The position numbers were made by a program, and so were the translations under genes. Below are positions 30,397 through 32,144 of a stretch of DNA of 55,285 nucleotides, piece after piece (the first letter of the stretch is position 1; the number at the start of each line of letters is the position of its first letter). The stretch lies in contig CAZCFW010000001.1 of the NCBI GenBank assembly GCA_964498035.1, forward strand, positions 1-55,285. The letters run 5' to 3'. The DNA is from an uncultured Candidatus Saccharibacteria bacterium. GTDB taxonomy: Bacteria; Patescibacteriota; Minisyncoccia; Phycocordibacterales; UBA9973. The notes beneath the pieces are model-generated. The model made no database searches. It was not told the origin of the DNA and saw only the letters and a list, made by a program, of their open reading frames with translations.

Positions 30397-30714
30397 TTAA
30401 TTGATAATGTTGAAATCTGATAATGCTTTGCCTGAAATGTATACGTCTATATTTTGGCCCTTACCTTCGTTTTCGTACATGACATTTATTTTTTGAGGTA
30501 TATCTTTTTCATAAAAAACTTTAATCTCTTTTGCATCTACAGTGCCGTCCCAAACTTTTGTGAGTACATCTGTATTCATACCAGAGATGTGTAATTCGAA
30601 TTGATCGTAATTTTTACTCTGAGGATTAGCAATAAAGTTCTTCACTTTCTCTTTCAAAGCTACTGTTTGATCTTCCCATCCATTTTTTATTGTTTTTGTT
30701 TCAGGGCTTTTCAT
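30397..30714 (-). CDS. Hypothetical soluble protein (105 aa) inserted between atpG and atpD
   Basis: ORF with 7-nt and 10-nt gaps to the neighbouring atp genes, same strand. No TM segment and no recognisable domain. Confidence 0.55.
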
Positions 30715-30721
30715 ATATTTT

Positions 30722-31651
30722 TTAACTCACACTCGCCATACCGGCACTAATTTCTGATATCTCCTGCGTGATCGACGCTTGGCGGGCTTTGTTGAATGCT
30801 AAGGTGAGGTCGTCTATCATTTCTCCTGCGGCTTCCGATGCGTTCTTCATTGCCACCATTCTGGATGATTGCTCGCTGGCGTTCGATTCAAGGAGCATCT
30901 GGTAAATCTGCATTCGGGATAATTTCTCAGCTAAGCTTCCAATGAGTGCATTCTGGTCTCCTTCAAAGAGATACTCAATCTTCTTTGTTGCACTATTATC
31001 AAGTTCGTCTTTTACATCTGCATTTTCTCCTACTGTATCAATCAATTCTTTTATCTGTTCTTTTGATATTGGTAGGATCTGTTTGATATTTGGTTTTTGT
31101 GAAAGAGCGGAAACGAAGTCGGTGTATGCTATTAAAATTTTATCGTATTTATTTTCTTTGTATTGGTCTACCACGAATTTCGATATCGGTACCACATCAT
31201 TTAGATTTATATTGTCCGGCAATTCTGTGAATGTGGCAATGATGTTCTTCCCTATTCTCCTCATTGCTGTGTCACCCTTTTTTCCGACTGTAACCAAATC
31301 AATATTAATGAAGTCGGACTTCCTTAAATCTATATTTTGTTTAAGTAATGCCAAAACTTTCTTGGTGACTTGAGCGTTGTAGGCTCCGCAGAGTCCGCGG
31401 TTTGAGGTGATGAGGACGAGGAGGACATTTTTTACTTCGCGCTGTACGAATAGTGGGTGCTTTATCTCCTCTGTGCTGTTTGCAATAGAAGTAAGAATCT
31501 CCCAAGAGTACCCAGCGTATAGTCGGGATGCAAGTGTGGAAGAAACCGCACGCTTCATCTTGGAAGCCGCCACGAGCTCCATAGCTTTCGTGATCTTTTT
31601 AGTGTTCTTCACACTCTTTATTCTTCTTTTGATTTCTTTTGTTCCAGCCAT
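30722..31651 (-). CDS. atpG: F0F1 ATP synthase subunit gamma
   Basis: IKRRIKSVKNTKKITKAMELVAASKMKRA N-terminus and ITQEISEI..G C-terminus are canonical gamma. Confidence 0.9.
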   Translation of the reverse strand: MAGTKEIKRRIKSVKNTKKITKAMELVAASKMKRAVSSTLASRLYAGYSWEILTSIANSTEEIKHPLFVQREVKNVLLVLITSNRGLCGAYNAQVTKKVLALLKQNIDLRKSDFINIDLVTVGKKGDTAMRRIGKNIIATFTELPDNINLNDVVPISKFVVDQYKENKYDKILIAYTDFVSALSQKPNIKQILPISKEQIKELIDTVGENADVKDELDNSATKKIEYLFEGDQNALIGSLAEKLSRMQIYQMLLESNASEQSSRMVAMKNASEAAGEMIDDLTLAFNKARQASITQEISEISAGMASVS

Positions 31652-31655
31652 ATAA

Positions 31656-32144
31656 TTATTTATTACCTAATTCAAATAAACCCACAGTACAACCCCAACT
31701 CATAGCTTGAATATATTGTTTATCGTTATCATTAATTCCTTCTACTGTGTAAACTGGTCCCCATGCACCTTCCCAGCCTGGTACTGGAGTTCCTCCAAAG
31801 TAACTAACTTGTATCGATGTACCTTTTAATCTTACTTTCTCTCCCCGTTTTACTTTGAAAATATTACTATCTTTAATGTCATCAAAACGATAACCGTATT
31901 CTTCTGCAACTTCTTCTTTTGAAGATTCAAAATCAACTTCTCTTGCATCTCCTGGTATTACTGTACCCTTAGGTACTTGATCTACAGGCTCGCACGAAGG
32001 TTTTATTTTATTAAATAAAACCTTGTTTGACTCAATGCTTCTAAACTTAAATATAAAAAGGGCAATTAATAACACAACCACAACCCCAATTACCACAAGG
32101 AATATTTTTTTAATTTTATTACTTTTTACTGGAGCTGATTCCAT
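31656..32144 (-). CDS. Hypothetical membrane-anchored protein (162 aa) inserted between atpA and atpG
   Basis: N-terminal TM segment (IFLVVIGVVVVLLIALFIF) followed by a ~120-aa domain with conserved-looking Cys, Trp and Gly. Gaps of 3-4 nt to the neighbouring atp genes. Confidence 0.55.
   Translation of the reverse strand: MESAPVKSNKIKKIFLVVIGVVVVLLIALFIFKFRSIESNKVLFNKIKPSCEPVDQVPKGTVIPGDAREVDFESSKEEVAEEYGYRFDDIKDSNIFKVKRGEKVRLKGTSIQVSYFGGTPVPGWEGAWGPVYTVEGINDNDKQYIQAMSWGCTVGLFELGNK

Follow-up and report, generated by a model that had tools for sequence, protein, structure and literature searches.

Two small genes among the F1 genes of a Patescibacteria ATP synthase operon are probably recently acquired passengers at insertion-prone junctions

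The window analysed in this study is a stretch of 55,285 nucleotides (nt) from an uncultured Candidatus Saccharibacteria bacterium (GenBank assembly GCA_964498035.1, contig CAZCFW010000001.1, positions 1 to 55,285), and its minus strand carries a complete operon for an F-type ATP synthase in which two small genes, here called ORF162 and ORF105, lie among the genes of the F1 subunits. The source genome, a member of the Candidate Phyla Radiation (CPR; Patescibacteria), is a metagenome-assembled genome (MAG) of 768 kb in 51 contigs with 38% G+C and 87% completeness. From the list of open reading frames (ORFs) and the Pfam and NCBIfam assignments, the gene order was found to be atpI/Z-like, atpB, atpE, atpF, atpH, atpA, ORF162, atpG, ORF105, atpD and atpC, all on the minus strand. 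The species-private ORF162 (31656-32144; 162 amino acids, aa) is located between atpA (F1 alpha, 32148-33650), the upstream flank of this first slot, and atpG (F1 gamma, 30722-31651; PF00231, E 2.5e-88; TIGR01146, E 9.5e-89), the core gene separating both slots. ORF105 (30397-30714; 105 aa), also species-private, occupies the second slot between atpG and its downstream flank atpD (F1 beta, 29028-30386). The spacers measure 3 nt from the atpA stop to the ATG of ORF162, 4 nt between ORF162 and atpG, 7 nt between atpG and ORF105 and 10 nt between ORF105 and atpD, in agreement with the gaps of 3-10 nt given in the first-pass annotation of this DNA. Its other descriptive statements also held: the atp order is interrupted twice at these positions by proteins of 162 and 105 aa, the first is membrane-anchored and the second soluble (one and zero hydrophobic segments, respectively), and neither resembles a known ATP synthase subunit or assembly factor, as no Pfam or NCBIfam threshold was reached and nothing significant was found against PDB sequences. 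The PHROG and PADLOC thresholds were likewise reached by neither ORF.

All four insert junctions are matched at 100% identity by Logan contigs from three runs (SRR12762274-6), in which atpA-ORF162-atpG and atpG-ORF105-atpD are spanned. These runs may be the genome's own source samples and hence the match mainly rules out an error in contig joining. The fragmented and incomplete state of the MAG would leave some room for a contig that is chimeric at the atp junctions, but the spanning contigs, the clean junctions with canonical stops and starts and the similarly occupied atp slots of relatives make an assembly artefact exceedingly improbable.

In the closest relative (G469), a stretch of about 30 kb is collinear with the window, and the identity reaches 99.3% for beta, 96.2% for alpha and 87.8% for gamma. 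Neither ORF162 nor ORF105 is present in its atp operon, where the atpA/atpG spacer is 9 nt and the atpG/atpD spacer of 212 nt codes for an unrelated 63-aa protein with two transmembrane (TM) segments. Nucleotide homology between the window and G469 ends right after the atpG stop and restarts at the atpD leader (AACATTAT...AAAATTATTATT-ATG), so the boundaries of the insert match the ORF almost exactly; the final codons of ORF105 run into this leader, which is kept after ORF105. The A/T-only leader itself (ATTATTAACATTATTAA ... AAAATTATTATT-ATG; 30387-30396), lying 5' of atpD, is conserved across the genus and survives every insertion, and it may serve as the site at which translation of beta is initiated. 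Further window genes without a counterpart in G469 break the same syntenic block at 36521-37240, 37977-39837 and 43448-48227, the private genes at these three sites being those of a 239-aa barrel-like protein, two HExxH paralogues, a 1489-aa repeat protein and an 86-aa ORF. The flux of genes between conserved neighbours is therefore a general feature of this lineage, from which the atp operon is not exempt.

The same two junctions were examined across the genus, using a set of 93 species representatives (this genome and 92 others); they could be read in 68 other genus members (66 for each junction) and in six further families of the order. No homologue of either insert was found at these junctions in the 68 genus operons or the six families. 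The ORF162 family is absent from all 92 other genus members and the ORF105 family is present in one of them (G020), outside the atp operon. The slots themselves are used recurrently: ORF inserts at atpA/atpG or atpG/atpD were found in 14 of the 68 other species, the others being empty or holding a repeat of about 95 nt, and in G436 both slots are filled as in the window. Spacers of at least 150 nt occur at atpA/atpG in 9/66 species, eight of them with a co-oriented ORF, and at atpG/atpD in 7/66, all with a co-oriented ORF. Every inserted ORF of at least 60 aa lies on the operon strand, and the first ORF of a slot usually begins about 3-8 nt past the upstream stop. As a separate observation, atpG was detected in 74 of the 92 other genus members and in 6 of 16 other sampled families of the order; since genomes with a completeness rating of 99-100% are among those in which it is absent, possession of the ATP synthase is itself patchy in this lineage.

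The inserted genes are almost all unrelated to each other. In all-against-all BLASTP only one homologous pair was recovered, namely the 130-aa atpG/atpD ORFs of G486 and G436 with 80% identity, for which the ratio of nonsynonymous to synonymous substitution rates (dN/dS) is 0.15, compared with 0.05 for atpG and 0.02 for atpD of the same two genomes; such passengers can thus be under purifying selection. In the relatives next in closeness after G469, the cargo of the atpG/atpD slot differs again, with a 60-aa TM and Cys-rich peptide in G384 and a 131-aa 23S rRNA intervening-sequence (IVS) protein in G429 (L059; PF05635, E 5.6e-31). The atpA/atpG insert of G452 (L067) is 800 nt long and carries a 78-aa membrane ORF and a Bro-N gene (PF02498, E 7e-8), which looks split since a separate 70-aa ORF follows in another frame. 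As a junction control, a sample of 29 species, which takes in two genomes picked for their closeness to this one, was compared: atpF/atpH spacers do not exceed 14 nt and atpH/atpA spacers 48 nt, whereas those at atpA/atpG, atpG/atpD and atpD/atpC reach 340-472 nt. The atpD/atpC spacer is at least 150 nt long in 5/27 genus members and is therefore a third variable junction. In the window this spacer (28772-29027) measures 256 nt, and in G469 about 256 nt too.

A palindromic repeat of about 95 nt with the core GTCCTCGGA..GAGG..GCCAGAC is present in many spacers of intermediate length (60-149 nt) and was found at the atpG/atpD spacers of L012, L013, L022, L023 and L027. There are 7-16 copies per genome in G004, G008 and G022 and one in G011; more diverged look-alikes, recognised by eye only, are present at atpA/atpG of G008 and G016 (L027 and L017). 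The genome under study has one copy, outside the window (contig C1, 80497-80602), which was matched as two separate pieces. The repeat folds better than shuffled sequences (z -3.0), and no Rfam family matched it or any atp spacer of the relatives or the window. It looks like a miniature inverted-repeat transposable element (MITE) or an element of the repetitive extragenic palindromic (REP) type.

ORF162 has a single hydrophobic segment near the N-terminus (about residues 14-32), forming an N-terminal signal-anchor helix, which is followed by a beta-rich domain of about 100 aa; one pair of cysteines is present (C51 and C152). Among 1.84 billion representative proteins just one homologue was found, P0003 (156 aa, 30% identity, E 2e-7). 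Both proteins begin with a basic N-terminus and the TM helix, which is directly followed by a Cys; they have a second Cys near the C-terminus and the motifs IPGDA, GEKV and GWEG..GPVY in common. P0003 is encoded on a short contig with small membrane ORFs as neighbours and no atp gene, and a profile built from ORF162 and P0003 added no further members. Matches of ORF162 in four relatives (E 0.002-0.009) cover the TM part only and were rejected as hydrophobic-segment matches. The AlphaFold2 model, obtained from an alignment of these two sequences, has a predicted local distance difference test (pLDDT) score of 77 and contains a long helix (residues 10-46) followed by an alpha/beta domain with six strands at pLDDT 80-90. 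A fold search with this model gave no match at E <= 0.001, the best being E 0.65 in the PDB (TM-score < 0.3) and E 0.03 in BFVD. The most likely picture of ORF162 is that of a membrane-anchored protein exposed at the surface, its N-terminus lying inside and its beta-rich, possibly disulfide-bonded C-terminal domain outside. This view is drawn from P0003, in which the N-terminal flank of the helix is net positive and the C-terminal flank acidic, and from the conserved Cys pair, which points to a disulfide outside the cytoplasm. With this topology the globular domain would be across the membrane from F1.

ORF105 has no hydrophobic segment, and its homologues are found in surroundings unrelated to the ATP synthase. 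That in G020 (46% identity, E 5e-25) makes up the C-terminal half of a protein of 179 aa, and the N-terminus of this protein matches RNA_pol_A_CTD (PF03118, E 5.8e-6). This gene (L007, 1492-2031, minus strand; L055, 3776-4315, plus strand) is on contig C3, the G020 atp operon being on contig C83, and it adjoins an HNH-domain ORF and large ORFs without assignment. A second homologue, in G092 (L056, 3800-4243; profile E 5e-16), adjoins a Mrr restriction endonuclease and a fragment of a type I R-subunit. The motifs H-x-SG-x-N, VFY, G-x-GQ and GKAL-x-D are conserved in all three proteins. Profile searches for relatives of the two inserts in viral contigs and JGI metagenome contigs gave none, and in genome contigs they recovered only G020 and G092. 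In G311 a SMODS nucleotidyltransferase was matched by the ORF105 profile over its C-terminal half (E 1.6e-7 per genome), but this match was dropped, as the hhalign probability was 19%. By these comparisons ORF105 is predicted to be a small, cytoplasmic, stand-alone copy of a rare domain, and the fusion partner in G020 hints at nucleic-acid or RNA polymerase-related interactions.

Both ORFs are probably real genes. Under a codon-frequency model trained on the 344 longest ORFs of the genome, ORF162 has a log-likelihood of -3.80 per codon and ORF105 one of -3.73, against a genome mean of -3.89 (standard deviation 0.06), and the other five frames at both places scored -4.2 to -5.0. Translation starts in this genome lie in A/T-rich surroundings, 63% of the long ORFs having T at -1, and a Shine-Dalgarno-like motif precedes only 6% of them; the starts of ORF162 and ORF105 are likewise A/T-rich with T at -1 and hence genome-typical. 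A TATAAT-like hexamer was also noticed within 20 nt of the ATG in 36% of the long ORFs of the whole genome. The G+C content at third codon positions (GC3) is 0.19 in ORF162, about two standard deviations below the genome mean of 0.33, a typical 0.30 in ORF105 and 0.43-0.45 in the atp core genes. The frame-specific codon signal, the genome-typical starts, the distant homologues which keep the motifs or the Cys pair, and the pLDDT of the ORF162 model are together the basis for taking them as genes, to which the dN/dS of 0.15 for the one homologous insert pair of relatives is added.

One or both ORFs might instead be non-functional, either as decaying remnants or as chance or de novo frames in an expanded spacer, tolerated as the operon is undisturbed. 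Their near-orphan status speaks for this: in word-index searches of 5.8 billion proteins each recovered only itself, and the search of 1.84 billion proteins added little. Moreover, the Bro-N gene in the insert of G452 is visibly split, and the structure prediction for ORF105 is poor. Decay or chance would however hardly give both ORFs a codon signal that is frame-specific and equal to that of genuine genes, nor homologues at 30-46% identity which keep motifs over the full length, including the TM and Cys-pair architecture. The fold of ORF162 is also confident from an alignment of two sequences, and both ORFs fill their spacers exactly and have genome-typical starts. That either is non-functional is hence regarded as unlikely.

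The Fo part of the operon consists of the atpI/Z-like gene at its usual place (35824-36123), atpB (34923-35849), atpE (34656-34883) and atpF (34071-34565), and no inserts are found in it. The following atpH (delta, 33655-34062) matches the OSCP profile. As reported in the first-pass annotation, delta is unusually short at 135 aa; it matches only profile positions 67-172 and is without about 40 N-terminal residues. Short delta is a clade-wide trait: six operons of the genus without inserts have a delta of 134-135 aa, four further families of the order show a gene or gap of delta size (about 123-135 codons), and short delta subunits have been reported in CPR bacteria (bioRxiv 10.64898/2026.10.01.756066). 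As delta is just as short where operons are insert-free, a connection between its length and the inserts was rejected. Beyond the atpI/Z-like gene, a tRNA-Ile(GAT) gene (36230-36303) is bordered by exact copies of its own halves (repeats of 39 and 37 nt; 36147-36398).

The first-pass annotation had proposed that both proteins could be lineage-specific accessory or regulatory subunits, assembly factors or inhibitors of F1Fo, made in step with F1. Their tight embedding in the F1 gene block, with probable co-expression, fits such a role, as does the TM helix of ORF162, which could touch Fo. Many atpA/atpG inserts of the genus are also small membrane proteins, and the short delta of this clade has been linked in the literature to unusual stalk arrangements. 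The proposal did not survive the survey of related atp operons for the same insertions, which had been named in advance as the comparison that could speak against it: ORF162 and ORF105 are both missing from 68/68 other genus operons read, including that of the closest relative with its 96-99% identical alpha and beta. The same slots elsewhere are occupied by unrelated proteins, among them the IVS protein and the Bro-N gene, and all detectable homologues of the two ORFs lie outside atp loci. No similarity to any known ATP synthase subunit, assembly factor or inhibitor family was found in Pfam, NCBIfam or PDB sequences, or among folds for ORF162, whose globular domain is probably outward-facing, away from F1. 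Shortness of delta is shared across the clade, in contrast to the species-private inserts. An ATP synthase role of ORF162 and ORF105 is hence not supported, and it appears very improbable that they are subunits or dedicated regulators of the enzyme.

The explanation we favour, with good confidence, is that ORF162 and ORF105 are recently acquired, real-looking passenger genes at two insertion-prone junctions and not constituents or dedicated regulators of the ATP synthase. The junctions atpA/atpG and atpG/atpD of this genus would be repeatedly filled, emptied and refilled with small, almost all unrelated genes. The locus has the features of a flexible-genome hotspot, namely shared core flanks with differing or empty cargo, specificity for particular junctions, and patchy cargo known from unrelated contexts. 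The operon stays intact in this process, as the insert boundaries nearly coincide with ORF boundaries, the cargo is co-oriented and the atpD leader is kept. The passengers would be transcribed from the atp promoter by read-through, since the 3-10 nt spacers leave no room for a promoter or terminator, and they would be translated by stop-start (termination-reinitiation) coupling in a genome without Shine-Dalgarno sites; the stop-start distances of 3, 4, 7 and 10 nt and the rarity of Shine-Dalgarno-like motifs are as expected for such coupling. The last gene of the operon is atpC (epsilon, 28325-28771), and 3' of it a terminator-like hairpin with a T-run (28279-28301, minus strand) is the sole such site at the operon end, no minus-strand terminator having been found between atpB and this hairpin. 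The earlier suggestion of co-transcription and coupled translation is therefore consistent with the spacers and plausible. As to the arrival of the cargo, the simplest idea is replacement by homologous recombination through the conserved flanking atp genes, which is a candidate route.

Some observations weigh against the passenger explanation or parts of it. No mobility gene or domain, target-site duplication, or flanking direct, inverted or terminal repeat was found at the two inserts of the window, so that the features of an insertion sequence, a MITE, an integrative element or a homing-endonuclease gene are seen at neither. The ordinary GC3 of ORF105 means that its composition gives no sign of foreign origin, and its single-sequence structure prediction reaches a pLDDT of only 46, which has been counted for the non-functional alternative. 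The charges flanking the TM helix in ORF162 itself are balanced, the proposed topology being taken from the charges of the homologue and from the Cys pair. Finally, membrane proteins make up 6/10 of the genus atpA/atpG inserts (that of the window included), so that some loose connection in function with the membrane or Fo is conceivable.

A bolder version of such a link would be that the junctions flanking atpG, and also atpD/atpC, serve in CPR bacteria as a selected 'expression rack' for ORF-only swapping, with some of the cargo acting on the enzyme or on membrane energetics. Promoter-poor minimal genomes lacking Shine-Dalgarno sites would capture and swap small genes there, and the atpA/atpG membrane proteins, including ORF162 through its TM helix, might for example modulate Fo or the short-delta stalk. 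We regard this as quite improbable at present. The passenger explanation is the ordinary one for both genes, within a mildly interesting recurrent genomic pattern, and the window adds a further case and a genus-level count of this pattern rather than a new system; full-text searches of the literature gave no paper on genes inserted into CPR atp operons. In practical terms, neither gene should be named an ATP synthase subunit in annotation. The findings suggest that ultra-small bacteria tolerate a rapid turnover of unrelated small genes at particular junctions of a core bioenergetic operon, which is perhaps a platform for it. This is relevant to the question of how minimal genomes that have few promoters and lack Shine-Dalgarno sites gain and express new genes. 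Further, the conserved atp flanks can be used to find fast-evolving small proteins in CPR bacteria.

In comparison with known systems, AtpI/AtpZ (PF09527) and the AtpQ/AtpR proteins of N-ATPases (PMC2881411) are alike in being small, often membrane proteins encoded in atp operons, but these are conserved across many lineages at fixed positions. ORF162 and ORF105 show no similarity to them and are species-private. Among the small regulators of F1 is also AtpTheta of cyanobacteria. The epsilon C-terminal domain, the zeta subunit and IF1 (review PMC9317440) are small soluble F1 regulators of the kind envisaged for ORF105. No sequence or profile similarity connects ORF105 with the small F1 regulators; its domain is found elsewhere fused to an RNA polymerase alpha-CTD-like (C-terminal domain) helix-hairpin-helix module, and also with restriction genes. 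The 23S rRNA IVS protein cassettes (PF05635) do not include ORF162 or ORF105, but the member in the G429 atpG/atpD slot means that this slot accepts selfish or mobile-type cargo. Phage morons are single extra genes between conserved syntenic neighbours, varying among relatives and having functions unrelated to those of the neighbours, and they typically carry their own promoter and terminator. The window inserts are alike in being extra genes between conserved neighbours but rely on the host operon without signals of their own, and no relatives of them were found in viral contigs or PHROGs. The arrangement matches that of the integration hotspots between core genes described by Oliveira, Touchon, Cury and Rocha in 2017 (PMC5635113), which share with the atp slots the constant core flanks with differing or absent cargo, the rapid turnover between close relatives and the patchy cargo families found in other contexts. 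In contrast to these hotspots, no integrase, tRNA or repeats were seen at the boundaries of the two inserts of the window, and no promoter or terminator was evident around them; the atp slots are embedded in an operon that is essential and co-transcribed, each of them has one to three small ORFs, and their cargo is co-oriented (all ORFs of at least 60 aa) and usually starts a few nt past the upstream stop.

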